In this document: piece after piece, positions 560-58,370 of the stretch
Position numbering within the stretch: the stretch's first letter is position 1
Layout of the letters: every line of letters begins with the position of its first letter
Source: an uncultured Eubacteriales bacterium
GTDB lineage: Bacteria > Bacillota > Clostridia > Oscillospirales > Oscillospiraceae
Assembly: GCA_900317855.1 (NCBI GenBank)
Contig: ONIG01000006.1
Coordinates: 3,918 to 67,917 of the forward strand
DNA length: 64,000 bases
Direction: 5' to 3'
Made by a program: the position numbers and the translations under genes
Notes under the pieces: model-generated
Told to the model about the DNA's origin: nothing
Database searches by the model: none
Seen by the model: only the letters and a program-made list of their open reading frames with translations

Positions 560-1285
560 TCAGCACTGCATCTGTTTGAGCATCTCCTGGCGCAGGTGCG
601 CGATGATGCGCTTTTCGAGCCGGCTGATGTAGCTCTGCGAGATGCCCAGCAGGTCTGCAACCTCTTTTTGCGTCGCCTCGCGCGCGCCGCCGATGCCGAA
701 GCGCAGCAGAATGATCTGCCGGTCGCGCTCGCCGAGCGTTTCGATGGCGCGCAGGAGCATGGCGCGCTCCGCGTCGTCCTCGAGCGGGCGGCTCACGGCG
801 TCGGCGTCCGTGCCGAGGATGTCCGAGAGCAGCAGCTCATTACCGTCCCAGTCGGTGTTGAGCGGCTCGTCGATGCTCACCTCCGTTTTCTGCGCGCTGC
901 ACTTGCGCAGGTACATGAGGATCTCGTTTTCAATGCAGCGTGAGGCATAGGTCGCGAGCTTGATGTTCTTGTCCGGCTTGAAGGTATGGATGGCCTTGAT
1001 GAGGCCGATCGTGCCGATCGAGATCAGGTCCTCGATGTGGATGCCCGTGTTTTCAAACCGGCGCGCGATGTACACCACCAGCCGCAGGTTGTGCTCGATG
1101 AGCAGGGAAGCGGCCTCCTCGCTCCCGGCGGCGAGCGCCCGGATGGCCTGCTGCTCTGCCTCGCGGTCGAGCGGGGCGGGCATGGTGTCGCTCCCGCCGA
1201 TGTAAAACAGCCCCGGCGCGCCGCCGCGCAGCCGCAGCCGCAGCGCCGCCCAGAGCGTATGCAGTCTTTCCAGTAGTCTTGGCAC
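560..1285 (-). CDS. sigE: Sporulation sigma factor, pro-sigma-E
   Basis: Collinear with B. subtilis pro-SigE as I recall it: [90 protein letters not shown]. Lies directly downstream of spoIIGA. Start reset to GTG 1285, which has GAGGAGG 8 nt upstream. Confidence 0.9.
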
Positions 1286-1298
1286 GAAAAACCCCTCC

Positions 1299-2135
1299 TC
1301 AGCTTTTTGGCGGCAGCACCATGGCAAATGCGCCGTCGGATGTGAGCGCCTGCGCGCTCAGCGCCAGCAGCATCGGCTCTGCCGCGCCGCCGATCCTCAC
1401 GCTGTCCGGCCGGAACGCCGGCAGCAGCGCGCCGGCCACGCCCACCGCGCGGTACGGCAGCAGCACGACCCGGCCGGTGCACTCCGGCAGCGCACTGAGC
1501 GCTTCCAGCGTCTGCACCGCGTCGTCCGGCAGCGCGTGCAGCGCCGGAAACAGCGGCAGCACCGCCGCGCGCTCGACCACCGCCGCCGGCAGGCCGGACA
1601 CCGGGTCGTGCAGGTCATTGCCGCTGTCGCGCAGGGCCTTGAGCGTCACGCTGCGCCCGGCGAGCATGACCGTCACGGTGCGCACCTCGCGGTCGGCGGC
1701 CTTTGCCCGCCGGCGGAACACGAGCGACACGGCCGCATAGCACGCGGCGAACGACAGCGCCAGCACCCGGCCCGACACCGTCACGAGCGCGCCGCTGCCC
1801 GGCGACACGCCTGCGAGCATACTCGCAGCGTACACCGTACCGCCGAACGCGGCCGACACGGCGAAGAACACCACCGTGCACCGCACGAGATGTGCCTCCC
1901 CGCCGAAGGCGATGAGCGCCATGGCCGCGCCGAGCGCGAGCTTCATCACACCGTTTGCCAGCCACCCGCAGCCGGGCAGGACCATGAGCGCCGCGTACAG
2001 CGCGCCGGTGAGCGCTGCGAGCGCGTACCGCCAGCGGCGCAGCACCACGCCGCATACGCGCGCAGAGGCCAGCACCAGGCAGTAATCGATCAGCAGATTC
2101 AGCCCGAACAGGCTGTCGAGATAGATGACGTCCAT
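1299..2135 (-). CDS. spoIIGA: Sigma-E processing aspartic peptidase SpoIIGA
   Basis: Five N-terminal TM helices plus a C-terminal domain with the DSGN motif ([15 protein letters not shown]). Conserved spoIIGA-sigE order. Confidence 0.85.
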
Positions 2136-2240: not shown

Positions 2241-2269
2241 TTGCTTTTGCGCGATCCGGCTGGTATAAT
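2241..2269 (+). promoter_or_regulatory. Sigma-A-type promoter of the surface-module/ECF operon
   Basis: TTGCTT (2241-2246), 17-nt spacer, TATAAT (2264-2269) with an upstream TG (extended -10). The leader is about 65 nt and holds an 8-bp GC hairpin GCGCGCGG/CCGCGCGC. Confidence 0.55.
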
Positions 2270-2337
2270 GTTGCGTGATTTCGGAATTCGGCGCGCGGGC
2301 CGACCGCGCGCATCGTGACCCCTTCAGGAGGAAAATC

Positions 2338-3813
2338 ATGAAAACGAACAAACGGTTTCTGGCGCTGTGTCTGGCGCTGCTGCTCGTGTGCGCGGCGCTG
2401 CCGGCGCCGGCGGTGCAGGGCGCGGATGTGCAGCCAGTGCTCTCGGCCGCGCTGGCGCAGCAGGCGGCGGCCGTCCCGTCGCCGGGCTACGGCGATGAGT
2501 GGACGGTGCTGGGCCTTGCCCGCGGCGGGTATTTCGCCGTGGACAGCGACTATTTCGCGCGCTACTATGCAGACGTTGCGTCCAAGGCGCCGGAGCTCAC
2601 GGCAGCGTCCGGGCGCGACGGTGCGCTCAACGCCTACAAATCCACGGACAATTCGCGCGTCATCCTCGCGCTGTCCGCCATCGGGCGCGACGCGACGCAG
2701 GTCGGCGGCTGCGACCTTACCGCGCCATATGCCGACTTCGCCTGGGTACGTAATCAGGGCATCAACGGCCCGGTGTTTGCGCTGCTCGCGCTCGACAGCC
2801 GCAATTATCTGTCCGGCAGCGCGGTGCGCCGCCAGTGTGTGGACGCCATTCTGGCGGCGGAGCTCTCCGGCGGCGGCTGGGCGATGAGCGGTGCGGCGGC
2901 CGACCCGGACGTGACGGCCATGGTGCTGCAGGCGCTGGCGGCGTACCGCGGGGAGGCGGCCGTCGCAGCGGCCGTGTCGCGCGGCATTGACACGCTCTCG
3001 GCCATGCAGAGCAGCGACGGCGGCTTCACCTCGTGGGGCTCCGCCAACGCCGAGAGCGTCGCGCAGGTCATCGTGGCCTGCACGGCGCTGGGCATCGACC
3101 CGGACACGGACAGCCGCTTCGTCAAGGACGGCGGCTCGGCGGTCGATGCGCTGCTGACGTTTTATGATGCGGGCGCGGCCGCGTTCCGCCACAAGGCCTC
3201 CGGCGGCACGGACAGTCTCGCCACGGAGCAGGCGGTGTATGCGCTCGTGGCCGTCTCGCGGTTCCAGCGCGGGCAGAGCGGCCTCTATCAGGAGACGGAC
3301 ACGCCCACGGTCGAGACGCCTGCCGAGCCGGACGAACCGGTTGCGCGCGTGCTCTGCACGGCGGACGGCAGCGGCCTCATCCCGGCCGGATACCGCACGG
3401 TCGCCGTGTGCCTGCCGGACGTGACGGCGGACAGCACGGTCACGTTTTCCGACGGGACGCAGCTGCTCTACAGCCCCGTGCTCTCCGAGCGCAGCGACAC
3501 GCCGACGTGGGTCTGGCTCTTTGCGCCGGACGTGACGGATGACGCGCTCAATGACACGGCAAACTATACCGTGACGGACGAAAAAGGCCCGGTGCTGACC
3601 GTCGGCGATGGGAATGCCGACGGCGTTATCAACGTGCAGGATGCGATCAATATCCGCACGGCCTGTGCCGGCAGCGCGGTCCCAGCGGCGGAGCGGCTGC
3701 TGACGATGGATGTGAATCTCGACGGCCGTGTCGACGCGCGGGATGTGCGCGCGCTGGCCGACGGCTTTGTGCACAACACGGCGCTGCCCACGGCGCAGGA
3801 GGACGGACAATGA
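2338..3813 (+). CDS. Secreted alpha/alpha-toroid protein (prenyltransferase/terpene-cyclase-like, or transcobalamin alpha-domain-like) with a C-terminal type-I dockerin
   Basis: ATG 2338 follows AGGAGG. Signal peptide MKTNKRFLALCLALLLVCAALPAPAVQGA. Toroid-type repeats DVTAMVLQALAAY, SDGGFTSWGS and ESVAQVIVAC. Two C-terminal Ca-binding loops, DGNADGVINVQD and DVNLDGRVDARD (about 3601..3775). Confidence 0.7.
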   Translation: MKTNKRFLALCLALLLVCAALPAPAVQGADVQPVLSAALAQQAAAVPSPGYGDEWTVLGLARGGYFAVDSDYFARYYADVASKAPELTAASGRDGALNAYKSTDNSRVILALSAIGRDATQVGGCDLTAPYADFAWVRNQGINGPVFALLALDSRNYLSGSAVRRQCVDAILAAELSGGGWAMSGAAADPDVTAMVLQALAAYRGEAAVAAAVSRGIDTLSAMQSSDGGFTSWGSANAESVAQVIVACTALGIDPDTDSRFVKDGGSAVDALLTFYDAGAAAFRHKASGGTDSLATEQAVYALVAVSRFQRGQSGLYQETDTPTVETPAEPDEPVARVLCTADGSGLIPAGYRTVAVCLPDVTADSTVTFSDGTQLLYSPVLSERSDTPTWVWLFAPDVTDDALNDTANYTVTDEKGPVLTVGDGNADGVINVQDAINIRTACAGSAVPAAERLLTMDVNLDGRVDARDVRALADGFVHNTALPTAQEDGQ

Positions 3814-4367
3814 AGACTTTCCTGACGAAAAAGAACATTGCCATCGTGCTTGCCGTGCTGCTGGTCGTGGTCGTTGTGGTGCTGTGCATCACGATGCGGC
3901 AAAAGAGCGTCGCGGACACCGACCCCACGCTCACGCTCACAAGCCAGAGCGCGGACGCTGATGGCGCGTGCACGGTCGATGTTGTGCTCTCCGGCCTGCC
4001 GGACGGCGCGCACTATGCGGCGGCGAGCCTCGCCGTGGCCTTTGACCCGACGCAGATCACATTTCTCGGCACGTCGGACGGGGACATCCCGCTCGTGATG
4101 GGCAGCCTCCCGGAGTGGGAGAGTGACCCGGAGCGTGCCAACGAGACCGGCAGCGCACGCGCTCTGTGCCTGCCGGAGGATGACGGCACACTCGCCACAT
4201 CGACCGGCAGCGTGCTCGTGCGGCTGCGCTTTCAGCTCGCCGACGGTGTGACGGAGTCGGCGCTGACGGTGTCGGACGCCGTGCTGGCCGCCGCGGACGA
4301 ATCAGAGAGCCTTGCCACGACGACGGCCACGCTCACGGTCGTGAACGGGACGGTGCAGCGTGGCTAA
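3810..4367 (+). CDS. Single-pass membrane-anchored cohesin-like protein
   Basis: ATGA overlap with the upstream stop. N-terminal TM IAIVLAVLLVVVVVVLCI. The ectodomain follows the cohesin beta-sandwich pattern: CTVDVVLSGLPDG....ASLAVAFDPTQITFLG ... GSVLVRLRFQLADG..ESALTVSD ... TLTVVNGTV. Confidence 0.6.
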   Translation: MKTFLTKKNIAIVLAVLLVVVVVVLCITMRQKSVADTDPTLTLTSQSADADGACTVDVVLSGLPDGAHYAAASLAVAFDPTQITFLGTSDGDIPLVMGSLPEWESDPERANETGSARALCLPEDDGTLATSTGSVLVRLRFQLADGVTESALTVSDAVLAAADESESLATTTATLTVVNGTVQRG

Positions 4368-4860
4368 GCGGCGCGCGCTCAGTCTGCTGCTGTGCCTGCT
4401 GCTTTTGCTGTGCACGGCCTGCGGCGGGCAGGTGCAGGAGGATGACGGCGCGCTGCACTGCACGGTAACAATCGAGTGCAGCACGGTGCTGGAGCATATG
4501 GACGACCTGAAGCCCGGCAAGGCGGACATCGTCCCGCCTGACGGTGTGCTCCTGCCGGAGACGACCGTCTCCTTCTCGGAGGGGGACACGGTGTTCGATG
4601 TGCTGCAGCGGGTCTGCCGCGCGCAGGGCCTCCACATGGAGTCGACCTGGACGCCTGCATACAACAGCGCCTATATCGAGGGCATCGGCAACCTCTACGA
4701 ATTTGACTGCGGCGAGCTGTCCGGCTGGATGTACAGTGTCAACGGTGTCTGGCCGGACTACGGCTGCAGCGGCTACACGCTGCACGACGGCGACACCGTC
4801 GTCTGGAGCTATACCTGCGACCTCGGGCGCGACGTCGGCGCCCAGCAAGGAGAACCATGA
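4360..4860 (+). CDS. DUF4430 (transcobalamin-like C-terminal beta domain) lipoprotein
   Basis: GTG start overlapping the upstream stop by 8 nt. Lipobox LLLLC-TAC-GG. DUF4430-like core GDTVFDVL...YIEGIGNLYEFDCGELSGWMYSVNG..PDYG...Y.LHDGDTVVWSYT. Confidence 0.75.
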   Translation: MAKRRALSLLLCLLLLLCTACGGQVQEDDGALHCTVTIECSTVLEHMDDLKPGKADIVPPDGVLLPETTVSFSEGDTVFDVLQRVCRAQGLHMESTWTPAYNSAYIEGIGNLYEFDCGELSGWMYSVNGVWPDYGCSGYTLHDGDTVVWSYTCDLGRDVGAQQGEP

Positions 4861-5747
4861 ACGATTCCTTCTCGGCGCTGCACCCGGCGCTGACCTTTTG
4901 CTATTTTGCGGCCGTGCTGCTGCTGACGATGCTCGTGCTGCACCCGGTATTTCTGGCGCTGAGCCTGCTGGGCGCGCTGGGCTACTGTGCGGTGCTGCGC
5001 GGCTGGCGCAGCCTGGGGCGGACGCTCGGCTGGCTCGTGCCGTTTCTGGTGCTGATGGCGGCGCTCAACGCATTGTTCAACCATGCGGGCGTGACGATGC
5101 TGTTCTACCTGCCGAACGGCAACCCCGTCACGCGCGAGGCGCTGTGCTACGGCGCGGCCGCGGCGGCGATGTTCGCGGCCGTGATCCTGTGGTTCCAGTG
5201 CTGCAACGTTGTCATGACGGCGGAGAAATATCTGTACGTGTTCGGCAGCGCGCTGCCGGGCGTGTCGCTGCTGCTGAGCATGGCGCTGCGGTTCGTGCCG
5301 AAGTTTTCCGCGCACATCCGCGCCGTGCGCGCGGCGCAGGCGTCGCTCGGCTGCGGCACGCGCGAGGGCAATGCGTGGCAGCGGCTGAAAAATGGTGCGC
5401 GCATTTTGTCTGTCACCGTCTCGTGGGCGCTAGAGAGTGGCATCACGGCGGCGGACTCGATGAAGAGCCGGGGCTACGGCGCCGGCAGAAGAACCTATTT
5501 CGGCAATTACCATTTCACCCGGCGCGACGGTGTGCTCTGCGCCGTTTTTGCGCTCGCGCTTGCGGGCGTGTGCGCGGGCGTTGGCTGCGGCGCGCTGTAT
5601 GTGCGCTACTATCCGTCGATCCGCATCGGCGGCGACGGTGCGCTCGGCGCGGTATGCATGGTGTGCTTTGCGCTGCTGTGCTTTCTGCCGCTGCTGCTCG
5701 ATGGAAAGGAGGCACTGACATGGCGTCGTTTGCGCTCGAACATCTGA
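4857..5747 (+). CDS. ECF transporter transmembrane (T) component, CbiQ/EcfT family
   Basis: ATGA overlap with the DUF4430 gene. Polytopic protein with an EcfT-like coupling region (ALRFVP...RAVRAAQ..RG). Confidence 0.85.
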   Translation: MNDSFSALHPALTFCYFAAVLLLTMLVLHPVFLALSLLGALGYCAVLRGWRSLGRTLGWLVPFLVLMAALNALFNHAGVTMLFYLPNGNPVTREALCYGAAAAAMFAAVILWFQCCNVVMTAEKYLYVFGSALPGVSLLLSMALRFVPKFSAHIRAVRAAQASLGCGTREGNAWQRLKNGARILSVTVSWALESGITAADSMKSRGYGAGRRTYFGNYHFTRRDGVLCAVFALALAGVCAGVGCGALYVRYYPSIRIGGDGALGAVCMVCFALLCFLPLLLDGKEALTWRRLRSNI

Positions 5748-7330
5748 CGTTTACCTATCCGGGCCAGACGCGCCCGGCGCTCGATGACCTCACGCTCACG
5801 GTCCCGGAGGGCGCGGTCACCGTCCTCTGCGGCGAGAGCGGCAGCGGCAAATCGACCCTCCTGCGCCAGCTCAAGACCTGCCTCACGCCGCACGGCACGG
5901 TCAGCGGCACGGTGCGCCTCGGGGACACGCCCTTAAAGGACATCCCGTTTGCTGAGCAGGCGCGGCGCATCGGTTTTGTGCTCCAGCACCCGGATGATCA
6001 GATCGTGACGGACAAGGTGTTCCACGAGCTGGCGTTCGGGCTCGAGAGCCTCGGCTGCGAGGAAAAAACCATGCGTCTGCGCGTCGCCGAGATGGCGAGC
6101 TACTTCGGCATTGCCGACTGGTTCGCGCGCGACGTGGGCGCGCTCTCCGGCGGCCAGAAGCAGATGCTCAACCTCGCGTCCGTCGTGGTCATGCGGCCGG
6201 ACGTGCTCATTTTAGACGAGCCGACGAGCCAGCTCGACCCCATCGCGGCGAGTACTTTCCTGCACACGCTGCGCAAGCTCAACGAGGAGCTGGGGCTGAC
6301 GATCCTGCTGTCCGAGCAGCGGCTGGAGGAGGCCGTGCCGCTGGCCGACCACCTCATCGTGCTCGAGCAGGGGCGGCTGCTGGCCGCCGGTGCGCCGCAG
6401 GAGGCGGCGGCCGCGGTGCGTGGTCATGCGATCTTTTCTGCCATGCCCACGGCGGCGCGCATTGCCGCCGCCCTCGGCGAGACGGAGCGTCTGCCGCTCA
6501 CCGTGCGCGCGGGCAGAGCGTATCTGGGGCGCTTTTCTCCGCACCCGATGCCGGACGCAGCGCCCGCGCCCGTGGGCACGCCCCCGGTGCTCACCGTGCG
6601 CGACGGCTGGTTTCGCTACGCGCAAGGCAGCGCGGACGTGCTGCGCAATTTCTCGCTCGCGCTGCGCCCGGGTGAGCTCTACGCGCTCACCGGCAGCAAC
6701 GGCAGCGGCAAGACAACGGCGCTCGGCGTGCTCTCCGGGCGGCTGCGGCTCTACCGCGGCAGCGTGTACCTCAATGGGAAGCGGCAGCGCGCGCTCCAGC
6801 CTCTGCGCGACGGCATCGCCGCCGTGCCGCAGGACCCGCGCACGCTCTTCGCGGCCGACACGGTGCGCGCCGATCTCGCTTCGCTTGGCAGGGACGCCGC
6901 GCTGGTGGACACGGTCGTGCGGCAGATGGCGCTCGCGCCGCTGCTCGACCGGCACCCCTTTGACCTCTCCGGCGGCGAGCAGCAGCGCGCTGCGCTGGCG
7001 AAGGTGCTGCTCATGCAGCCGCGCGTGCTGCTGCTCGACGAGCCGACGAAGGGCATGGATGGCGCGTTCAAGGCTGACTTCGGCGCGCTTTTGCGCGCGC
7101 TCTGCGCGCAGGGCGCGGCCGTGTGCATCGTGAGCCACGATGTGGAGTTCTGCGCGCAGTACGCCGACCGCTGCGGCCTGCTCTTTCGCGGCGAGGTCGT
7201 GACGGAAAACGCCGCGCGTGCATTTTTCTCCGGCAATTATTTTTACACCACGGCGGCCGCGCGCATCGCGCGCACCGCTGCGCCCGGCGCGGTACTGTGC
7301 GGGGAGGTCGTGCAATGTCTCACCGATTGA
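5720..7330 (+). CDS. Fused duplicated ECF ATPase (EcfA-EcfA')
   Basis: True start is ATG 5720 after GGAAAGGAGG. The track ORF 4544..7330 carries a spurious N-terminal extension. Two complete ABC cassettes: GESGSGKST/LSGGQKQ/ILDEPTSQLD and GSNGSGKTT/LSGGEQQR/LLLDEPTKGMD. Confidence 0.9.
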   Translation: MASFALEHLTFTYPGQTRPALDDLTLTVPEGAVTVLCGESGSGKSTLLRQLKTCLTPHGTVSGTVRLGDTPLKDIPFAEQARRIGFVLQHPDDQIVTDKVFHELAFGLESLGCEEKTMRLRVAEMASYFGIADWFARDVGALSGGQKQMLNLASVVVMRPDVLILDEPTSQLDPIAASTFLHTLRKLNEELGLTILLSEQRLEEAVPLADHLIVLEQGRLLAAGAPQEAAAAVRGHAIFSAMPTAARIAAALGETERLPLTVRAGRAYLGRFSPHPMPDAAPAPVGTPPVLTVRDGWFRYAQGSADVLRNFSLALRPGELYALTGSNGSGKTTALGVLSGRLRLYRGSVYLNGKRQRALQPLRDGIAAVPQDPRTLFAADTVRADLASLGRDAALVDTVVRQMALAPLLDRHPFDLSGGEQQRAALAKVLLMQPRVLLLDEPTKGMDGAFKADFGALLRALCAQGAAVCIVSHDVEFCAQYADRCGLLFRGEVVTENAARAFFSGNYFYTTAAARIARTAAPGAVLCGEVVQCLTD

Positions 7331-8016
7331 CGCGGCGCACCTGGGCCGCGCTCGGCATCCTGCTCGTTGCGATCCCGGCGCTGATGGCGGTGTTCGTATG
7401 CGTGTGGGACGAGCGGAAGTACTACCTCACGTCGCTGCTGCTCGTGGGGCTGATGTTTGTGCCGTTCGTGCTGCGGTTTGAAGGCCGCAGGCCGCAGGCG
7501 CGCGAGCTCGTGCTGCTCGCGACGATGACGGCGCTGGCCGTGGCCGGGCGCGCGGTGTTTTACTGGCTGCCGCAGTGCAAGCCTGTGTGCGCGATCGTGA
7601 TCCTCACGGCCGTGGCCTTCACGCCGGAGGCAGGCTTCGTCACCGGCGCGGCGGCGGGCCTGATCTCGAACTTTTTCTTCGGGCAGGGGCCGTGGACGCC
7701 GTGGCAGATGCTCGGCTTCGGGCTCGTGGGCTTTCTCGGCGGCGTGCTGTTTGCCGGGCGGAAGGTGCGGCTCGTGCCGCTGCTGCTCTACGGCTTTTTC
7801 TCGGTGCTCATCGTCTACGGCGTGCTGCTCGATACGGCGAGCATGCTCATGTACAACGCCGTGCCCTCGTGGCAGCTGTGGCTGGCGACCTGCGCGTCGG
7901 GATTTGTGTTCAACCTCATCCACGCGGGCGCGACGGCCGTGTTCCTGCTCCTGCTGTATAAGCCCCTGCTCACCAAGCTCGCGCGCGTGAAAGAAAAGTA
8001 CGGACTTCTGGAATGA
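7315..8016 (+). CDS. ECF transporter substrate-specific (S) component, substrate unknown
   Basis: ATG 7315 after GGGGAGG, overlapping the ATPase stop. Six predicted TM helices. Contains NFFFGQGPWTPWQM, which I recall from the ECF_trnsp S-component family. Confidence 0.75.
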   Translation: MSHRLTRRTWAALGILLVAIPALMAVFVCVWDERKYYLTSLLLVGLMFVPFVLRFEGRRPQARELVLLATMTALAVAGRAVFYWLPQCKPVCAIVILTAVAFTPEAGFVTGAAAGLISNFFFGQGPWTPWQMLGFGLVGFLGGVLFAGRKVRLVPLLLYGFFSVLIVYGVLLDTASMLMYNAVPSWQLWLATCASGFVFNLIHAGATAVFLLLLYKPLLTKLARVKEKYGLLE

Positions 8017-8021
8017 AAAAA

Positions 8022-8051
8022 CTCCGCATCCAATCGGATGCGGAGATTTTT
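8022..8051. terminator. Bidirectional intrinsic terminator
   Basis: Stem CTCCGCATCC/GGATGCGGAG with loop AATC. A-run upstream and T-run downstream. Confidence 0.75.
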
Positions 8052-24374: not shown

Positions 24375-25679
24375 TTACTTGCTCACGGCCGCCTGCAGCA
24401 CGGTGTTGGCCACGGCGCCCGCATTCGTCAGACCGCCGCCGGCGTTTTCCACCAGCACGACAAAGGCGTACGGGTGCGCATCGTCGAGCAGAAAGCCCGT
24501 GAACCAGGCGTGCGACGTGCCGTCGCCCACCTCGGCGGTGCCGGTCTTGGCACAGAGGTTCAGGCCCGGGAAGCGGTTCGTGCCGTAGTGGGCCGAGACG
24601 TTGTAGTTCATCATGTCGCGTAGCTTATTGGCGGTCGTGGCGCTGAGCAGATTCGTGTTCGAGCCGCTGGGCGTATCGAGCAGCAGCGACGGCTCCACGA
24701 CGCTGCCGCCGTTGGCGATGGCCGAGACGTAGCGCAGCATGGAGTACGGGCAGATGAGGTCCTCGTACTGGCCGATGCCCGACCAGGCGAGGTTTGCGCT
24801 GCCGGACGCGCCCTTCGTGAAGCTGCCGGCGAGCGTCGGGATGCCGCTCAGCGACTGGGAATCGAGGAAGCCGAGCTTCTTGGCGTAGCTCTCGATGGTA
24901 TCGGCCCCGAGCTCGAGCGAGATCTGCGCGAACGCGCAGTTGCAGGAGTTGGCCAGCGCGTCCTCAAACGTCTGGCTGCCGTGCACGCCCGTGCACTTGA
25001 CGCTCACGCCATTGACGTCCATACTGCCTGCGCACGTAAAGCGGCGGCTGTCGATGTCTTTGATGTTCTCGATCGCGGCGGCGGAGGTGATGAGCTTGAA
25101 GATGGAGCCCGGCGTGAATGAGCCGTTGATGCAGCGGTTGATGTACGCGCCGTCCGGCACGTCGCCGTCGCTGCTGGGGTCGATGCTCGGGCCGGAGACC
25201 ATGACCAGGATCTCGCCGGTCTTGTAGTTGCTCACGAGCACGGCACCCTTGCGCCCGGCGAGCGCCTCGTAGGCGGTCACGCACAGGCTCGAATCGAGCG
25301 TGAGCGCGACGGTGTGCCCATCGGTCGCGTAAGTGCCGGTGATGGGGTTGTAGCCCGAGAGCTGCTTGGAAAATGCCTTGAGCGCGCCGGTGCCGACATT
25401 GCCGGTGTAGTCGCCGACGGCCTGATAGCAGGCGGTGCGCACGGCAGCGTCATCGGCGTAGCTGCGCGAGCCGCCGTTGGCCGTCGCGAGCACGACGCCG
25501 CTGCGGTCGGTGAGTGTGCCGGTGCTGAGCACGCCGCTGGTGTAGACACTGCTGTTGGCGGCGAAGGTCGCCCACTCGGCGCCGTGTTCGATGTAGCGCA
25601 CGATGTACACGCCGATGCCGCCGAGCACCAGCACGGCGACGAGCAGCGCGCTCATGGCGCGGCGTTTGACTTTGTTCAT
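24375..25679 (-). CDS. Class B penicillin-binding protein (PbpA-like transpeptidase)
   Basis: Start MNKVKRR at 25679 after AAGGAGG, overlapping the RodA stop (ATGA). Motifs SIFK (SxxK), SCN (SxN) and KTGT. Confidence 0.85.
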   Translation of the reverse strand: MNKVKRRAMSALLVAVLVLGGIGVYIVRYIEHGAEWATFAANSSVYTSGVLSTGTLTDRSGVVLATANGGSRSYADDAAVRTACYQAVGDYTGNVGTGALKAFSKQLSGYNPITGTYATDGHTVALTLDSSLCVTAYEALAGRKGAVLVSNYKTGEILVMVSGPSIDPSSDGDVPDGAYINRCINGSFTPGSIFKLITSAAAIENIKDIDSRRFTCAGSMDVNGVSVKCTGVHGSQTFEDALANSCNCAFAQISLELGADTIESYAKKLGFLDSQSLSGIPTLAGSFTKGASGSANLAWSGIGQYEDLICPYSMLRYVSAIANGGSVVEPSLLLDTPSGSNTNLLSATTANKLRDMMNYNVSAHYGTNRFPGLNLCAKTGTAEVGDGTSHAWFTGFLLDDAHPYAFVVLVENAGGGLTNAGAVANTVLQAAVSK

Positions 25680-27370
25680 GCCTGCGCCTCCTTTTTCTTG
25701 CGCGATGGCAGCCGCACCACGAAGCTCGCGCCGCGCCGGGTATCGGCCGCCTTGATGTAGGCCAGCAGCATCCAGCACGAGAGCATGCTCGACCCGCCTT
25801 TGGACACGAACGGGAACGTCACGCCCGTGAACGGCAGGATGTCGAGCGCGCCGAACACATTGAGCGACATCTGCACGAGCATGAGCGTCACGGTGGCGCA
25901 GCCGGCGATGACGTAGTACGACGAGCGGCCCTGGGCCGCGTTTTTGACGGTGAAGATGGCGAGGGCGATGATGGCCAGCATCGCGCACAGCGCCACGATC
26001 AGGCCGAGCTCCTCACACAGCATGCCGAACACCATGTCGGTGTTGGCGGCAAAAATGCTTTTCAGCCAGCCGCAGCCCGCGCCCTGGCCGAACAGGCCGC
26101 CGGAGGCGGCCGCGCTCAGCGCGCGCGTCTGCTGGTAGCCCGCGCCGGAGACGTCCTCCCACACGTGGCCCCAGGTGGCGAAGCGCTGCGCCACGTGCGG
26201 CTTGATGCTCAGCACCAGCGTGCCCGCCATGGCGGCGGACGTCACGGCCAGCAGCACGGTCGCGATGCTGCCCGAGCGCATGAAGGCGATGACGAGGAAC
26301 GTCGCAAAGAAGATGAGTGCGGAGCCGAAGTCGCCCATCAGGGCGAGCCCGCCCACGCAGATGGCGGAAAAGGCGATGAAGAGCAGGATGCTCTTGCTGC
26401 GGAACATCCGGTTGAGCGACGTCGCGCCGACGTAGATGAACGCGACCTTAATGAGCTCTGACGGCTGCAGGGAGAAGCCCGCGATCGTCAGCCAGTTTTT
26501 CGCACCGAACACCTCGCGCGCGGCAAACAGGTTCAGTGCCAGCAGCGCCAGCGAGATGATGGCCGCCGGCCAGCGCAGCGCCTTGACATGGCTCAGGTCG
26601 CGCAGCCACCAGCCGAGCAGGAAAAACAGCGCGATGCCCACGAGGATGAGGATGATCTCCTTGGTCAGATCGTCCGGCGTGCTCGTCGCGCAGATCTCAA
26701 GCCCGAGCGTACACAGGAAAAACGCGATCGTCTCGACCTCGAAGCCCGAGCGGTCCATCGTGCGCATGAGCACGTAGCAGAACCACTGCGTGAGTGCGAG
26801 CGCGGCAAACGACATCAGGATCCCCAGCAGGTGCGCGCTGTCGGCCGAGGACACGAACTCCAGCGCCAGCAGCAGCTGAAACACCGTCAGGAAAAACAGC
26901 GTGCCGCCGGCGGAGACCTTCCGCCCGGCGATTGTGCGGCGCTGCTCCTGCACGGCGCGGCGTTCCTCGCTCATGTCGGCGAACTTGAGCATGTGCGTCG
27001 AGCAGCGGAGAATGTCGCCGCTGAATACCTGCGTCGGCTCCGTGATCTGTTCGCCGTTGAGGTACACGCCGCCGCTGCGGCTCAGATCGCTGACGGTCCA
27101 CTCGCCGGCGTCGTTGCGCATGAGTACGGCGTGGACGTTGGCCACGTCGGCATAGGGAAGCGTGATGTCCGCGCTGCGGGCGCGGCCGATCAGGCACTCC
27201 CAGTGCAGCAGGGGATAGACCTTGCCGTCCGGCGTGACGAGATGGCCCCACGTCTCCGGCTCGGCGCGGCCGTAGAACATGGACGCGATGCAGCGGATGA
27301 GCACGATGAGCGCGATGACCGGCAGGATGAAGTGCGCGGCCTGCGCGGCGTAAGCAGTTACGGCAGACAC
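25676..27370 (-). CDS. FHA-domain-fused SEDS glycosyltransferase (FtsW/RodA/SpoVE family)
   Basis: GTG 27370 has GGAAAGGAGG 7 nt upstream; the track ATG 27415 has no RBS. One N-terminal TM helix, then an FHA domain (LIGRARSADITL...VHAVLMRNDAGEWTVSDLSRSGGVYLNGEQI...GDILRCSTHMLKF), then a 10-TM SEDS core. Confidence 0.85.
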   Translation of the reverse strand: MSAVTAYAAQAAHFILPVIALIVLIRCIASMFYGRAEPETWGHLVTPDGKVYPLLHWECLIGRARSADITLPYADVANVHAVLMRNDAGEWTVSDLSRSGGVYLNGEQITEPTQVFSGDILRCSTHMLKFADMSEERRAVQEQRRTIAGRKVSAGGTLFFLTVFQLLLALEFVSSADSAHLLGILMSFAALALTQWFCYVLMRTMDRSGFEVETIAFFLCTLGLEICATSTPDDLTKEIILILVGIALFFLLGWWLRDLSHVKALRWPAAIISLALLALNLFAAREVFGAKNWLTIAGFSLQPSELIKVAFIYVGATSLNRMFRSKSILLFIAFSAICVGGLALMGDFGSALIFFATFLVIAFMRSGSIATVLLAVTSAAMAGTLVLSIKPHVAQRFATWGHVWEDVSGAGYQQTRALSAAASGGLFGQGAGCGWLKSIFAANTDMVFGMLCEELGLIVALCAMLAIIALAIFTVKNAAQGRSSYYVIAGCATVTLMLVQMSLNVFGALDILPFTGVTFPFVSKGGSSMLSCWMLLAYIKAADTRRGASFVVRLPSRKKKEAQA

Positions 27371-27465
27371 GGCGTCCGCCTCCTTTCCGAAGCTCCCGCG
27401 CGGGGAGCGGTACATTTTATAATAAAGCGATAAAAATCAAACCATTATACCACGGCAAAAATCCA

Positions 27466-47045: not shown

Positions 47046-48058
47046 CACTGAAGCTGATACTGGCGTTCGTCATCGCGTTTGCGGTGTCGGCCGTCGTCGG
47101 ATTTTTCCTGGTCCCGTATCTCAAACGCATCAAGGCGGGCCAGAGCATCAAGGAAAACGGCCCCGCGTGGCACATGTCCAAGCAGGGCACGCCCACCATG
47201 GGCGGGCTGATGTTTATTGCCGCGATCACGGTCGTGTGCCTGTCGGTCGGCTTTGAGTGCATGGCCGAGGGCGAATATGGCCACCTGTTTTGTCTGGCGT
47301 TCGCGCTCGTGTTCGGCGCGATCGGCTTTCTGGACGACTATGAAAAGCTCAAGAAAAAGCAGAATCTCGGCCTGACGGCCGGCAAAAAAATGCTGCTGCA
47401 GCTGGCGGCGGCCGTGGCGTTCATTTTCCTCATGCGCCGCTTCGGCTATGTCGCGCTCGACAGCCTGTACATCCCGTTCTGGAACAAGACGGTGGCGATC
47501 TCCGAGCCGCTGTATGTGATCTTTGCGGCCTTCGTCATCGTCGGCACGGTCAACTCCGTGAACCTCACCGACGGTGTGGACGGCCTCGCCGCGAGCACGA
47601 CGATGCCGGTGTGCATCTTCTTCGCCGTCATCTCCATCCTCTGGGGCGAGCGGTTTTTGTCCCTCGGTGTGTTCGCCTCCGGCATTGCCGGCGGCCTGCT
47701 GGGCTTTTTGATCTATAATTTCCACCCGGCGAAGGTGTTCATGGGCGACACGGGTTCGCTCTTTCTCGGCGGCGCGGTCGCGGCGCTGGCCTTTGCCTAC
47801 GATATGCCGCTCATCCTCGTGACGCTCGGCATCATGTACATCATCGAGGCCCTGTCGGACATCATCCAGGTCGGCTATTTCAAGCTCACGCACGGCAAGC
47901 GCGTGTTCAAGATGTCCCCGTTCCACCACCATCTCGAGATGGGCGGCTGGACGGGCCACAAGTGGAAAGAAACGCAGATCGTGGCGCTGTTTGCCGGCGT
48001 GACGGTGCTGTTTGCAGTTTTGTCGTTCATCGGCGTGTTCCACCGCTTCGGCGTGTGA
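47042..48058 (+). CDS. mraY: Phospho-N-acetylmuramoyl-pentapeptide transferase
   Basis: ATGA overlap with murE. Motifs K.GTPTMGG, NL.DGVDGLA and FMGDTGSL. Confidence 0.95.
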   Translation: MTLKLILAFVIAFAVSAVVGFFLVPYLKRIKAGQSIKENGPAWHMSKQGTPTMGGLMFIAAITVVCLSVGFECMAEGEYGHLFCLAFALVFGAIGFLDDYEKLKKKQNLGLTAGKKMLLQLAAAVAFIFLMRRFGYVALDSLYIPFWNKTVAISEPLYVIFAAFVIVGTVNSVNLTDGVDGLAASTTMPVCIFFAVISILWGERFLSLGVFASGIAGGLLGFLIYNFHPAKVFMGDTGSLFLGGAVAALAFAYDMPLILVTLGIMYIIEALSDIIQVGYFKLTHGKRVFKMSPFHHHLEMGGWTGHKWKETQIVALFAGVTVLFAVLSFIGVFHRFGV

Positions 48059-48089
48059 TGCATGCGCCGCGGTGCAGGGAGGTGCTTGC

Positions 48090-49250
48090 ATGAATATTTC
48101 CGATCTGAGACTTCCCGCGCGTCGCTCGGGCGCGGCCGCCGGGCCGCAGCGCGGCAGCTTCGACCTGCCGTTTTTCGTACTCACGCTGCTGCTGCTGACG
48201 ATCGGCGTCATCATGGTGCTCTCGTCGAGCTTTGCCCGCGCCTATGCGCAGGGCAAGTCGCCGACGTACTACTTCGTCCGCCAGGCGGCCTTCGCCGTGG
48301 CCGGCGTGGTGGTCATGATCTTTCTGTCCAAGGTGCGCATGGCGACCTACCGCCGCCTGTCGCTGCTGGTGCTGGGCGTGAGCATCTTCCTGCTTGCCGT
48401 CGTCTGGATCCCGCACATCGGCACTCGCGTCAACGGTGCGCGCCGGTGGCTGAGTCTCGGCTTTACGACATTTCAGCCTTCGGAGATCGCGAAGATCGCG
48501 GTCGTGCTGTTTTTCTCCAGCATGATCTGTACCTATAAAGAGCAGATGCAGACATTCCGCTACGGCGTCGTGCCGTTCATGGTCGTCACGGTCATCATTG
48601 TCGGCCTGCTGATGCTCGAGCCGCATCTGTCGGCGTCCATCATCATCATGGCGCTTGCGATCGTGATGATGTTTGTCGGCGGCATCAAGCTTTCGTACCT
48701 GCTCGTCGGCATGGGCAGCGCGGGCGCGCTGCTGCTTTTCGCGAGCAAGTTCGTGCCCTATGTGCATAAGCGCATTGTGTCCTGGCGCGACCCGTTTGCC
48801 GATACGAGCGCTGCCGGCTATCAGATCGTGCAGTCGCTGTATTCCATCGGATCGGGCGGCTTCCTCGGCCTCGGCCTCGGCCAGAGCCGGCAGAAGTACC
48901 TCTATCTGCCCGAGGAACACAATGACTACATCTTTTCCATCGTCTGTGAGGAGCTCGGCTATGTCGGCGCCATTGCGATCCTGATCCTGTTTGCGCTGCT
49001 CATCTGCCGCGGCTACTGGATCGCCGCGCACTCGCCCGACCGCTACAGCTTCCTCGTCGGCGTCGGCATCACGACGCTGCTGTCGATCCAGGTGTTTTTG
49101 AACATCGCGGTCGTCACGAACCTCATCCCCTGCACGGGCATCTCGCTGCCGTTTTTCAGCTACGGCGGCACGGCGCTGCTCATGCAGCTCGGGGAGATGG
49201 GCATCATCCTGAGCATCTCGCGCGACATTCCAACGAAAAAAGCGCGCTAG
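48090..49250 (+). CDS. ftsW: SEDS protein FtsW/SpoVE of the dcw cluster
   Basis: ATG 48090 after GGGAGG. Motifs FQPSEIAK and LPFFSYGG. Confidence 0.9.
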   Translation: MNISDLRLPARRSGAAAGPQRGSFDLPFFVLTLLLLTIGVIMVLSSSFARAYAQGKSPTYYFVRQAAFAVAGVVVMIFLSKVRMATYRRLSLLVLGVSIFLLAVVWIPHIGTRVNGARRWLSLGFTTFQPSEIAKIAVVLFFSSMICTYKEQMQTFRYGVVPFMVVTVIIVGLLMLEPHLSASIIIMALAIVMMFVGGIKLSYLLVGMGSAGALLLFASKFVPYVHKRIVSWRDPFADTSAAGYQIVQSLYSIGSGGFLGLGLGQSRQKYLYLPEEHNDYIFSIVCEELGYVGAIAILILFALLICRGYWIAAHSPDRYSFLVGVGITTLLSIQVFLNIAVVTNLIPCTGISLPFFSYGGTALLMQLGEMGIILSISRDIPTKKAR

Positions 49251-55004: not shown

Positions 55005-55586
55005 ATGCGAAATGACGACAAGCACGTCTCCGGTGTATGTGCGGCCGATGGCCAGCCGCCGGATGATGCGCTCATCCTGCGCATAGCGCGGGGTGACACC
55101 GCCGCGCTGGAAACGCTGTATCGCCAGACGTCCGCTTCCATTTACGGCTTCGCGCTGTCCATCCTTCGGGATCCGACGGCGGCGGAGGATGTGATGCAGG
55201 ACACGTTTGTGAGCGTGATGCAGTCGGCGCCGGGCTATCAGCCGTCGGGCAAACCGATGGCGTGGCTGCTGACGATCGCGCGCAATCTGGCGTTGATGCG
55301 CCTGCGCAAGGCGGAAAACAAAAACCTGTCTTTTGATGAGCTGTTTCATGTGGAAGATACGCATGATGCCTATCAGGTGACAGAGAATCATATGGTGCTT
55401 GAGAAAGTGCTGCATACGCTCACAGACAGCGAGCGGCAGATCGTGATGCTGCATGCGCTGTCCGGGCTCAAGCACAGAGAAGTTGCTGACCTGCTGGGGA
55501 TCCCGCAGGCAACAGCCATTTCTCGCTATAACCGTGCGCTTGGAAAGCTGCGCAATTCGATGGGAGGTGACGATCTTGACCGATAA
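55005..55586 (+). CDS. ECF-type RNA polymerase sigma-70 family factor
   Basis: Region 2 (AAEDVMQDTFVSV...WLLTIARNLA) and region 4 HTH ([28 protein letters not shown]). Confidence 0.85.
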   Translation: MRNDDKHVSGVCAADGQPPDDALILRIARGDTAALETLYRQTSASIYGFALSILRDPTAAEDVMQDTFVSVMQSAPGYQPSGKPMAWLLTIARNLALMRLRKAENKNLSFDELFHVEDTHDAYQVTENHMVLEKVLHTLTDSERQIVMLHALSGLKHREVADLLGIPQATAISRYNRALGKLRNSMGGDDLDR

Positions 55587-58213: not shown

Positions 58214-58370
58214 TTTCAGCCCTCCGTTTCTGCCTGAGGTTATTCTATTCGGCGGCTGCAAGTACACTTGCCTGCCACACAATTTTCCGGATGTGCGCAA
58301 ATGTTACGCAACGTTGTGTTGACTATTGAATAAAAAATGACGGCCAGACCGAGAAAATTACACGTTATAC

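Follow-up and report, generated by a model that had tools for sequence, protein, structure and literature searches.

Bacterial proteins resembling transcobalamin were predicted in 2007 by Burroughs, Balaji, Iyer and Aravind (PMC1796856), who placed toroid and SLBB proteins in CbiO/CbiQ operons and proposed that they scavenge B12. In this class, to which the operon described here belongs, secreted SLBB/DUF4430 proteins are fused to or encoded next to toroids, together with CbiO-like ATPases and CbiQ-like permeases. The study predates the definition of the ECF concept and of CbrT, and mentions LPXTG-type anchors but not cohesin, dockerin or riboswitches. Another close system is Lactobacillus sakei lsa1836-1840 (Verplaetse et al. 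2019, bioRxiv 10.1101/864751), which by its description has the same five parts (an S component, T, a fused A-A' and two secreted proteins, one transcobalamin-beta-like and the other an alpha-like toroid) and for which the same split-transcobalamin hand-off model was put forward. It differs in gene order and in the claimed substrate, heme, and its description includes neither a cohesin gene nor a dockerin.

Among transporters, ECF-CbrT of Lactobacillus delbrueckii (6FNP; Santos et al. 2018, PMC5997447) is an experimentally characterised B12/cobinamide ECF transporter that needs no accessory proteins to function in E. coli; CbrUVT also figures in gut-genome reconstructions (PMC6593275). Eukaryotic transcobalamin, intrinsic factor (IF) and haptocorrin combine an alpha6/alpha6 toroid and a beta-grasp domain with a beta-hairpin insert in one soluble polypeptide, and delivery is to an endocytic receptor. 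The Bacteroides surface lipoprotein BtuG is a beta-propeller. BtuG and BtuH also provide high-affinity surface corrinoid capture that feeds a transporter in gut bacteria (PMC8941943 and related work), but their folds are unrelated to those considered here, and they serve a TonB-dependent transporter in a Gram-negative envelope.

The window, that is, the whole 64-kb stretch of DNA analysed, contains an operon which, judged from sequence and models, is with a probability of about 0.7 a dedicated group I CbrTUV-type ECF corrinoid importer with a three-protein capture device on the outer face of the membrane. The preliminary description had proposed a split transcobalamin mounted on an ECF system. 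Its parts are borne out by folds, natural fusions and likeness to CbrT; the idea itself is not new, given the 2007 prediction and the 2019 L. sakei study.

Organization and control of the operon

Positions 2338-8016 hold six translationally coupled genes, g1 to g6 (Table 1), whose coordinates and start/stop junctions agree with those first reported. The overlaps would yield roughly equimolar synthesis of the products. The promoter placed ahead of them is visible in the sequence and unchanged in a relative that is 92% identical (L007), although its -35 element matches at only 3/6 positions, below the -35 rule of the promoter scanner. The 62-nt leader RNA folds with -26.3 kcal/mol (z = -1.9), and its hairpin shows one compensatory change in L007, from G-C to A-U; an Rfam search gave zero matches for this hairpin.

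Table 1. Predicted features of the operon and its flanks.
Feature	Positions	Strand	Remarks
Sigma-70-like promoter	2241-2269	+	TTGCTT, 17-nt spacer, TG-extended TATAAT (TGgTATAAT); read from sequence
Hairpin in 62-nt leader	2291-2311	+	GC-rich, 8-bp; no T-tract; not a riboswitch
g1, secreted toroid protein, 491 aa	2338-3813	+	Start ATG, ribosome-binding site AGGAGG; Pfam, AF2, Foldseek
g1 signal peptide (about residues 1-28)	2338-2421	+	
g1 alpha/alpha toroid (about residues 30-320)	2425-3297	+	Followed by Pro/Thr/Glu linker
g1 small beta domain (residues 336-413)	3343-3576	+	
g1 type-I dockerin (residues 420-480)	3595-3777	+	C-terminal
g2, membrane-anchored single-cohesin protein, 185 aa	3810-4367	+	ATGA junction with g1, overlap 4 nt; Pfam, family profile, hydropathy
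g2 TM helix (residues 10-29)	3837-3896	+	After Lys-rich N-terminus; single hydrophobic segment, N-terminal
g2 cohesin (residues 40-174)	3927-4331	+	
g3, lipoprotein, 166 aa	4360-4860	+	Start GTG, overlap with g2 8 nt; Pfam, AF2, Foldseek
g3 signal peptide and lipobox Cys21	4360-4422	+	
g3 transcobalamin-beta-like (DUF4430/SLBB) domain (residues 31-156)	4450-4827	+	
g4, EcfT (CbrU-like) transmembrane coupling component, 296 aa	4857-5747	+	ATGA junction with g3, overlap 4 nt; PDB EcfT matches
g5, fused EcfA-EcfA' (CbrV-like) ATPase, 536 aa	5720-7330	+	Overlap with g4 28 nt; two ABC_tran domains
g6, CbrT-like S component, 233 aa	7315-8016	+	Overlap with g5 16 nt; PDB and Pfam matches
g6 two extra N-terminal TM helices (residues 8-56)	7336-7482	+	Backed by hydropathy
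g6 CbrT-homologous core (residues 59-230)	7489-8004	+	
Bidirectional intrinsic terminator	8022-8045	both	10-bp stem, 7 G-C pairs, T-runs on both strands; directly 3' of g6

The arrangement is not a chance juxtaposition, as shown by 39 related genome loci in which the sequence continues for at least 5.6 kb past the g1 homolog. Toroid, DUF4430 and ECF genes occur together there: DUF4430 is present in 38 loci, A-A' in 37, T and S in 36 each, and g2 in 30.

The ECF importer and its substrate

The assignment of g4-g6 to EcfT, a fused EcfA-EcfA' ATPase and an S component holds. The g4 product matches the solved EcfT chains 4hzu_T, 4huq_T and 5d3m_D (E 2e-5 to 7e-5); a Pfam search with g4 gave no match, and Pfam CbiQ is present in its orthologs. 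In g5 the two ABC_tran domains reach E = 7e-57, and the ECF_ATPase models TIGR04520 and TIGR04521 score 295 and 284 bits. The g6 product matches Pfam ECF-ribofla_trS (E = 4.5e-9), and as a single sequence it has CbrT (6fnp_A, E = 2.3e-10) as its sole PDB match at E <= 1; with the family profile CbrT reaches E = 2e-16, against E = 0.059 for the second-ranked S component.

The importer resembles ECF-CbrT in its EcfT component, two ABC domains, predicted corrinoid substrate, B12 riboswitches in relatives and S component, which is homologous to CbrT over its whole length. It differs in the two additional helices of g6, in the co-transcription of three surface-protein genes, in the lack of a riboswitch at this copy and in being dedicated (group I), with the fused A-A' encoded beside the S component, whereas the L. 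delbrueckii transporter uses a shared ECF module.

The cobalamin riboswitch (Rfam RF00174) was searched for at 25 loci with the orthologous operon and lies upstream of it at 16 of them (8/12, 7/7 and 1/6), with full-length matches of 49-125 bits on the same strand. By nhmmer seeded with these matches, it is found at 46 of the 64 loci with at least 400 nt of upstream sequence. The corrinoid, at first a guess, is therefore backed by two independent lines, the CbrT-specific S component and the riboswitches before most orthologous operons. As already reported for the leader, Rfam detects no cobalamin riboswitch here, either in the whole window at gathering threshold or in 1900-2600 at E <= 10, and neither another B12-linked signal nor any other B12 gene was found within the window, so that the substrate call for this operon rests on orthology. 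The g6 product keeps all 31 invariant columns of an alignment that includes riboswitch-controlled orthologs, and its sequence gives no sign of a substrate shift with respect to them.

The missing riboswitch is also a point in favour of the proposal that the operon imports heme, alone or besides corrinoids, the toroid/beta pair scavenging an iron-porphyrin. Heme was proposed for the architecturally equivalent L. sakei operon, whose deletion lowered and whose overexpression raised intracellular heme; heme could also be docked between its alpha-like and beta-like proteins, both as homology models (bioRxiv 10.1101/864751). This is the only experimental work on the architecture, and it reports uptake of heme, not B12; B12, however, was left untried. 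A few kb upstream of the operon the window also has genes for a Fur-family regulator and a ZnuABC-type metal cluster, but these are not part of it and are set apart from it by divergently transcribed spoIIGA-sigE genes. The riboswitches of the relatives follow the logic of B12 rather than heme acquisition, and the S component is specifically CbrT-like; import of heme is accordingly considered improbable.

The surface proteins and their tether

The g1 product is, from its sequence and model, an exported protein in which a toroid is followed by a linker, a small beta domain and, at the C-terminus, a type-I dockerin. The repeat motifs first noticed, DVTAMVLQALAAY and SDGGFTSWG, are found at residues 191 and 226. 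The alpha/alpha toroid fold is confirmed by an AF2 model (pLDDT 90) and by Foldseek matches to terpene cyclases, GH88/GH105 hydrolases, prenyltransferase beta subunits and also transcobalamin (7qbf, 2v3n, 2bb6; E 4e-4 to 1e-3), to which the toroid is structurally no nearer than to terpene cyclases or GH88/GH105. In Pfam, SQHop_cyclase_C matched g1 (E = 2e-7) and Cobalamin_bind did not, the latter being a difference from the eukaryotic carriers.

Such matches could be taken to mean that g1 works outside the cell as an enzyme, whether a terpene cyclase/mutase, a prenyltransferase or a toroid of the glycoside-hydrolase kind, and that the ECF module imports the product of a cell-surface or environmental substrate. 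SQHop_cyclase_C is the best Pfam match, the top Foldseek matches are a diterpene cyclase, GH88/GH105 and squalene-hopene cyclase, and NCBI labels the homologs "terpene cyclase/mutase family protein". The NCBIfam cyclase models, however, score g1 at 19-20 bits against cut-offs of 323-431. In place of DxDD, the acid motif of class-II cyclases, g1 has D-P-D-V and the consensus of its family D-P-D-[IV]. Moreover, the protein is predicted to be secreted and dockerin-tethered, its toroid comes with a B12-type beta domain, either as a fusion or as a separate partner, and relatives have the gene downstream of B12 riboswitches. An enzymatic role is thus very improbable.

Comparison with transcobalamin is closer for g3. 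As proposed, it is a lipoprotein with a DUF4430-type beta domain (Pfam DUF4430, E = 5e-20), and Cys21 is kept in at least 90% of homologs in the context L-x-[AG]-C-G. The AF2 model (pLDDT 89) has the transcobalamin-like fold: in Foldseek, beta domains of IF, transcobalamin or haptocorrin fill the first 17 places among the PDB matches (E down to 5.5e-7), ahead of the bacterial DUF4430 structure 3u7z, and the TM score against the isolated transcobalamin beta domain is 0.70-0.72. Natural fusions of toroid and DUF4430 occur among the homologs (P0056, P0060, P0099, P0108, L060, L067, L085).

Of the three-gene surface module, g1 and g3 had been identified correctly, while g2 had been left without identity. 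The g2 product is, by its sequence, a type-II membrane protein whose entire ectodomain is one cohesin. The Pfam Cohesin match (E = 1.1e-4, 22.9 bits) is just under the cut-off of 24.1 and spans 2-133 of the 139-position profile; 37 of 39 g2 orthologs match the same model (best E = 1.4e-9), and the family profile finds only cohesins in the PDB (5nrk, 5nrm, 4uyp). The g1 dockerin in turn matches the PDB dockerins 6kg9 and 6kge (Pfam Dockerin_1, E = 3e-6) and has two Ca-loop motifs, DGNADGVINVQD (residue 424) and DVNLDGRVDARD (residue 458). Dockerin_1 is present at the g1 C-terminus in 49/49 loci with g2, the window included, versus 1/11 loci without it (window excluded, 48/0 versus 1/10; Fisher p = 1.8e-10). 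Where g2 is missing, relatives have SLH cell-wall anchors in place of the cohesin route, so that anchoring is conserved and its means vary.

One half of the split transcobalamin therefore appears, from sequence, to be fastened to the cell through a cohesin-dockerin pair. Like cellulosomal and non-cellulosomal pairs, this one has a cohesin of about 135 residues, matching the full Pfam model, and a type-I dockerin whose two Ca-binding loops are canonical, both encoded by adjacent genes. Unlike them, its predicted cargo is a vitamin-binding protein rather than a carbohydrate-active enzyme, and the "scaffoldin" is minimal (one cohesin, one TM helix), with even distant g2 relatives found in this operon context only.

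Capture, hand-off and biological meaning

In the proposed mechanism, the g1 dockerin would bind the g2 cohesin in a Ca2+-dependent manner, holding the toroid a few nanometres over the bilayer, beside the lipid-anchored beta domain of g3. Like the two domains of transcobalamin, but as separate polypeptides predicted to be membrane-tethered, these two would grip a corrinoid from either side and pass it to the g6 S component. The EcfT/A-A' module would then topple the S component, freeing the ligand inside the cell.

The surface proteins might instead hoard or sequester corrinoids for competition or storage, or mainly strip B12 from host or dietary binders, with import by the ECF module but no hand-off. 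By itself, ECF-CbrT is enough for B12 and cobinamide transport in a heterologous host (PMC5997447), the operon of surface and ECF genes is present at least twice in several genomes (L018/L019, L047/L054, L076/L079), and the surface proteins of many orthologs are far larger and built of several domains. Tight translational coupling, near-invariant synteny with the ECF genes and very short linkers on both anchors, which would place the domains right at the membrane beside the S component, make this reading unlikely, if less so than import of heme. Hoarding and hand-off are compatible with each other.

Under the capture and import reading, since ECF-CbrT works alone in E. coli, the surface module may raise affinity or competitiveness rather than be required. 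In most relatives a cobalamin riboswitch would turn the operon off; this lineage lacks one, and transcription would start at a plain sigma-70-like promoter and run through a short leader with a hairpin. No published description of a cohesin-dockerin tether in such an operon was found, and by virtue of this tether the operon counts as a new version of a known architecture. As judged from sequences and models, it represents a real and widespread corrinoid-capture and import system in this gut Clostridia bacterium and its relatives.

Operon architecture and distribution

The preliminary description had one promoter driving six genes chained by start/stop overlaps, and the six open reading frames (g1 to g6) agree with it exactly in coordinates and junctions. 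Ribosome-binding sites resembling AGGAGG precede g1, g2, g4, g5 and g6. The promoter-like element is composed of TTGCTT, 17 nt and a TG-extended TATAAT; its -35 hexamer is rejected by a consensus scanner, and the whole element is unchanged in a relative of 92% identity (L007). A strong bidirectional terminator lies at the 3′ end. The S, T and A genes of the transporter belong to one operon, as indicated by the overlapping genes, the single promoter and terminator, and the conserved synteny. The host genome is that of an Oscillospiraceae-like, spore-forming member of the Clostridia with 64% GC.

Features of the operon, its surroundings and related genome loci. Coordinates are those of the window unless a locus (L-number) is named; the last column gives presence among the 39 loci with enough downstream sequence.
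Feature	Coordinates	Product	Remarks	Presence
Promoter-like element	2241-2269
Leader hairpin	2291-2311
g1, toroid	2338-3813	491 aa	first gene
g2, cohesin	3810-4367	185 aa	ATGA junction, 4-nt overlap with g1	30/39
g3, DUF4430 lipoprotein	4360-4860	166 aa	GTG start, 8-nt overlap with g2	38/39
g4, EcfT (T)	4857-5747	296 aa	ATGA junction, 4-nt overlap with g3	36/39
g5, EcfA-EcfA′ (A-A′)	5720-7330	536 aa	28-nt overlap with g4	37/39
g6, S component	7315-8016	233 aa	16-nt overlap with g5, different frame	36/39
Extra TM helices of g6	7336-7482		residues 8-56
Terminator	8022-8045
Divergent sporulation sigma factor and Peptidase_U4 (SpoIIGA-type) gene, with Fur/Znu genes beyond them	560-2135 (-) and 2-508; L001:1946-4833		upstream of operon
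ORF with N-terminal FHA and FtsW/RodA/SpoVE domain	25676-27415 (-)		adjoins transpeptidase
Penicillin-binding transpeptidase	24375-25988
Second FtsW-type gene	48012-49250		dcw cluster
RsgI-like anti-sigma factor (C-terminal PepSY) and sigma-70-family factor	55453-56976 (+) / 57521-58300 (-)		neighbouring genes
Second partial riboswitch-like matches (examples)	L047:906-954, L059:1414-1486, L064:5120-5187, L029:6547-6594
Fused EcfA-EcfA′-S (examples)	L005:12604-15255, L003:12336-14879
Larger orthologs of g1 and g3 (examples)	L009:8128-10908, L060:8203-10866, L005:10489-11733, L003:9893-11362
Full system of Paraclostridium sordellii	L087:4518-14430		GCA_001372395.1

A scan of a one-genome-per-species collection yielded at least 577 confirmed matching stretches, and 80 loci were kept for comparison. 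The matches listed belong mainly to Oscillospiraceae, Lachnospiraceae, Ruminococcus, Faecousia and Acutalibacteraceae, with some from Clostridium, Lutispora, Bacillus and Paenibacillus. The order toroid-cohesin-DUF4430-T-A-A′-S is nearly invariant in the 80 loci and is repeated on independent metagenome contigs, so that the association of toroid, DUF4430 and ECF genes, first seen in the window, holds across genomes. Mis-binning or horizontal transfer may explain why some loci are labelled Alistipes, Muribaculaceae, Actinomycetes or Coriobacteriales. Two separate toroid loci occur within several single MAGs (L018/L019, L047/L054 and L076/L079), which suggests paralogous capture and import operons in one genome, possibly for different corrinoids.

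Typical orthologs of g1 are about 900 aa long, with an extra and often weak N-terminal DUF4430 domain ahead of the toroid, and those of g3 measure 380-490 aa, some 300 of these residues forming an uncharacterised region ahead of DUF4430; the window versions of both are stripped down by comparison. The full system is also found in a cultured pathogen, P. sordellii, in the order cobalamin riboswitch, 903-aa DUF4430 protein, cohesin, DUF4430 protein, T, A-A′, S and, at the 3′ end, a separate 360-aa toroid gene. As a cultured carrier of all the parts and the riboswitch, this species is a candidate experimental model.

Beyond the sporulation sigma factor and Peptidase_U4 genes upstream of the operon lie a Fur-family regulator and an operon for metal uptake (ZnuA/ABC/ABC-3); the window starts within the last gene of this operon. 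Two FtsW-type genes occur further downstream, one of them fused to an FHA domain.

The ECF transporter and the transcobalamin-like surface proteins

Residues 11-237 of g4 match solved EcfT chains (4hzu_T, 4huq_T and 5d3m_D, E = 2e-5 to 7e-5); no Pfam or NCBIfam model matches g4, and its orthologs carry Pfam CbiQ. The g5 product is a fused double ABC ATPase with two ABC_tran stretches, scoring 295 bits with TIGR04520 and 284 bits with TIGR04521, slightly below the single-domain equivalog cut-offs of 315 and 330. The sole PDB match of g6 at E <= 1 is CbrT (6fnp_A, E = 2.3e-10), the S component of the L. delbrueckii B12 transporter (PMC5997447). With a profile of 27 family members the match reaches E = 2e-16, the next S component standing at 0.059. 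Every column invariant across the riboswitch-controlled orthologs is kept in the window g6.

The g6 product and all 26 aligned orthologs, fused or not, differ from CbrT (182 aa) in possessing two extra N-terminal TM helices, which could connect the S component to the ATPase where the two are fused, or offer the surface proteins a place to dock. In about three-quarters of the orthologous operons, including some 30 loci besides the examples tabulated, a single polypeptide of about 850-890 aa combines EcfA, EcfA′ and the S component. The S component is thought to topple in the membrane, and in this light a covalent link to the ATPase is mechanistically curious. The L. delbrueckii gene cluster nrdJ-cbrS-cbrT-pduO includes "cbrS" (PMC5997447).

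The g3 product has a lipoprotein signal, whose Cys is conserved in at least 90% of homologs, and such lipoproteins number in the thousands. The transcobalamin-type beta domain attributed to it by the preliminary description is borne out by the match to Pfam DUF4430 (E = 5e-20) and by the AF2 model (pLDDT 89). Indeed, the 17 best PDB matches of this model found by Foldseek are exclusively beta domains of intrinsic factor, transcobalamin and haptocorrin, followed by a bacterial DUF4430 structure (3u7z). The TM-score of the g3 model to the beta domain of transcobalamin taken alone is 0.70-0.72. A sequence search of g3 against the PDB returned nothing at E <= 1, and the relationship is visible only via Pfam and fold comparison.

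Behind a signal peptide, the AF2 model of g1 (pLDDT 90) has an alpha/alpha toroid at residues ~30-320, which a linker rich in Pro, Thr and Glu joins to a small beta domain (336-413); a three-helix module makes up the C-terminus. The proposed toroid fold is sustained, and its link to transcobalamin agrees with the data but is not exclusive. In Foldseek the neighbours of the toroid (E = 8e-5 to 1e-3) are diterpene and squalene cyclases, GH88/GH105 hydrolases, prenyltransferase beta subunits and transcobalamin; the transcobalamin chains (4e-4 to 1e-3) are equalled or bettered by terpene cyclases and GH88/GH105 proteins. On this ranking, which places transcobalamin amid generic toroids, a specifically transcobalamin-type toroid is one possibility among several; Pfam Cobalamin_bind gave no match to g1 at E <= 0.01. 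More than 1,300 homologs of g1 are detectable, and some are single proteins with both a toroid and a DUF4430 domain.

The database name of these homologs, terpene cyclase or prenyltransferase, raises the alternative that g1 is an enzyme, and cyclases are indeed among its fold neighbours. This is unlikely, given the Foldseek results for the toroid and cyclase-model scores far below cut-offs: TIGR01787 and TIGR01507 have cut-offs of 323 and 431 and give g1 19-20 bits, so that the NCBIfam cyclase models miss by more than 300 bits, and assignment as a class II terpene cyclase or prenyltransferase was rejected. The position of DxDD, the catalytic motif of class II terpene cyclases, reads DPDV in g1 and DPD[IV] in its family, and g1 is secreted.

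The proposed cohesin-dockerin tether

The C-terminal module of g1 matches Pfam Dockerin_1 (27.6 bits, cut-off 22.9) and the PDB dockerins 6kg9 and 6kge, and is of the type-I class. Both of its Ca-binding loops, DGNADGVINVQD and DVNLDGRVDARD, are canonical, and AF2 places three helices at residues 433-478.

The g2 product, left without interpretation in the preliminary description, is by its sequence a membrane-anchored cohesin. A Lys-rich N-terminus and one TM helix precede a stretch of about 135 residues that aligns to nearly the whole Pfam Cohesin model, and this architecture is common to the window protein and 38 orthologs from related loci. The window g2 scores 22.9 bits, slightly below the cut-off of 24.1; Cohesin is matched by 37 of the 39 aligned sequences (best E = 1.4e-9), and the family profile finds only cohesins in the PDB. 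The relative in P. sordellii is named "cohesin domain-containing protein" in one source. An exhaustive phmmer search with g2 gave only 84 clusters, almost all of about 200 aa and aligned end to end, and its distant relatives, found by profile search, share the same operon context in every case inspected.

The two modules occur together. Dockerin_1 is found in 49/49 g1 C-termini from loci with g2 (window included), against 1/11 from loci without it; when the window is excluded, the contingency table is 48/0 versus 1/10 (Fisher's exact p = 1.8e-10). Among the g2-less loci, 2/11 g1 C-termini end in SLH domains, and triple SLH anchors occur on the large proteins of Lutispora and Paenibacillus in which toroid and DUF4430 are fused. 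Because these relatives have SLH anchors in place of the tether, surface retention is conserved and the anchoring device variable, the cohesin-dockerin tether being the commonest configuration among the sampled Clostridia loci.

In the 64-kb window no second dockerin, cohesin, toroid or DUF4430 ORF was found. The locus has in common with known cohesin-dockerin pairs a dockerin with duplicated Ca2+-binding F-hand loops, a cohesin module and the co-occurrence of the partners, and an interaction of the g1 dockerin with the g2 cohesin is likely. Elsewhere in the window, an RsgI-like anti-sigma factor adjoins a sigma-70-family factor; SigI/RsgI pairs control cellulosome genes in some Clostridia.

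Substrate, mechanism and significance

The absence of a cobalamin riboswitch, remarked upon earlier for the leader, extends to the entire window: no Rfam family, RF00174 included, gave a match at the gathering threshold, and RF00174 gave none at E <= 10 in the 1900-2600 region. A weak Ms_IGR-2 match (20 bits, gathering score 45) was dismissed as chance. RF00174 is also absent in the closest relatives, the near-identical L001 and the 92%-identical L007. A GC-rich 8-bp hairpin without a T-tract, located between promoter and ribosome-binding site, is the only element in the 62-nt leader. L007 shares it, a compensatory change having replaced one G-C pair by A-U. The hairpin matches no Rfam family; it could be an mRNA-stabilising or regulatory element which replaces the riboswitch in this lineage.

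RF00174 is present upstream of the orthologous operons in 16 of the 25 loci tested, namely 8/12 of one set, 7/7 more distant loci (including Bacillus, Paenibacillus, Lutispora and Clostridium) and 1/6 further loci, the single positive of the last being P. sordellii. These hits are full-length, on the operon strand and 5′ of the first surface-protein gene. With an nhmmer model of the Rfam-confirmed copies, the riboswitch is detected in 46/64 loci with at least 400 nt of upstream sequence. In many Faecousia-type loci a second partial match (model positions ~51-98) lies about 180 nt downstream of the full riboswitch; a degenerate tandem aptamer may account for it, or it may belong to the expression platform. 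The approximately 40 further ORFs of the window (12.5-63 kb) include no cob/cbi gene or B12-dependent enzyme and are all housekeeping, such as the dcw cluster, uvrC, nusA, formate-THF ligase, fumarase and malic enzyme.

The substrate is predicted with good confidence to be a corrinoid, a prediction which, for the riboswitch-less copy of the window, rests on orthology. The only rival with experimental backing is heme, proposed as the substrate of the L. sakei operon lsa1836-1840 of like architecture (bioRxiv 10.1101/864751). Heme import does not fit the riboswitch regulation of the operon family, and B12 was not among the substrates tried in the L. sakei study; uptake of heme and of corrinoids is not mutually exclusive.

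By homology, the co-transcribed and translationally coupled genes encode a CbrT-type ECF importer, a toroid that is secreted and bears a dockerin, a cohesin set in the membrane and a transcobalamin-beta domain with a lipid anchor. The cohesin begins only about 10 residues past its TM helix and the g3 domain about 10 residues past the lipidated Cys, and with such short anchors both halves would lie at the membrane surface. The g1 dockerin would plug into the g2 cohesin, and toroid and beta domain would be held next to the S component. They would clamp a corrinoid in the manner of transcobalamin and pass it on to the S component, with ATP driving the import. To this overall picture of corrinoid capture and import we assign a probability of roughly two in three; direct hand-off to the S component, taken separately, is marginally favoured. 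ECF-CbrT works alone in E. coli (PMC5997447), and therefore the surface layer most likely is not obligatory but improves the affinity or rate of capture when B12 is scarce. A role of the surface proteins in hoarding corrinoids or in competition is compatible with this and agrees with most of the data.

Several parts of the corrinoid capture-and-import reading have precedents. The beta (DUF4430/SLBB) domain of g3 is shared with transcobalamin, intrinsic factor and haptocorrin, in which both domains lie on one polypeptide, whereas the window has separate genes with the cohesin gene between them. With the dedicated (group I) CbrTUV type of ECF transporter the operon shares EcfT, two ECF ATPase domains, a CbrT-like S component and the one-operon layout, but not the B12-regulon riboswitch; CbrUVT serves as a B12-transporter marker in gut-genome reconstructions (PMC6593275). 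Secreted bacterial transcobalamin-like SLBB proteins, fused or adjacent to toroids, were reported in CbiO/CbiQ operons by Burroughs et al. 2007 (PMC1796856). For an operon of S, A-A′, T, beta-like and alpha-like genes, Verplaetse et al. 2019 (bioRxiv 10.1101/864751) proposed the same hand-off and deleted the operon. The core interpretation is thus already published and the locus belongs to a known class; the main idea dates back 19 years and has already been taken up in part by experiment, which makes the advance incremental, not categorical.

The feature not found described is the dedicated cohesin-dockerin tether. Cohesin, dockerin and riboswitches are unmentioned by both Burroughs et al. 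and Verplaetse et al., and no description linking a cohesin-dockerin pair to cobalamin capture was found in the literature covered, which took in a minority of the subscription journals, so that an earlier description is possible. The sole cohesin/dockerin paper mentioning cobalamin concerns ANME/SRB adhesion. The tether is directly testable by simple protein chemistry, and the regulatory evidence on the substrate bears on the published ambiguity between B12 and heme.

A minimal "cobalosome" of gut Clostridia (Oscillospiraceae, Lachnospiraceae, Ruminococcus, Faecousia and others) is put forward tentatively: a one-cohesin membrane anchor exclusive to operons of this type would hold the dockerin-toroid beside the lipid-anchored transcobalamin-beta domain, and the resulting two-piece corrinoid clamp would load the ECF S component. 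If true, this would be the first cohesin-dockerin assembly for vitamin capture, as opposed to polymer degradation or adhesion. Gram-positive bacteria would then have their own equivalent of Bacteroides BtuG, and the system would offer a present-day model of the bacterial ancestor from which animal transcobalamin has been proposed to descend. ECF transporters are usually defined by lacking extracytoplasmic binding proteins, and on those of this operon family an extracytoplasmic binding layer would be routine. Corrinoid competition shapes gut communities; to our knowledge, the capture of B12 by Gram-positive anaerobes at very low concentrations is poorly understood. The identification of B12 transporters in gut genomes has been named an open problem (Rodionov et al. 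2019). Given the abundance of the operon family and the location of most copies behind B12 riboswitches, it probably ranks among the main ways in which Clostridia acquire corrinoids.
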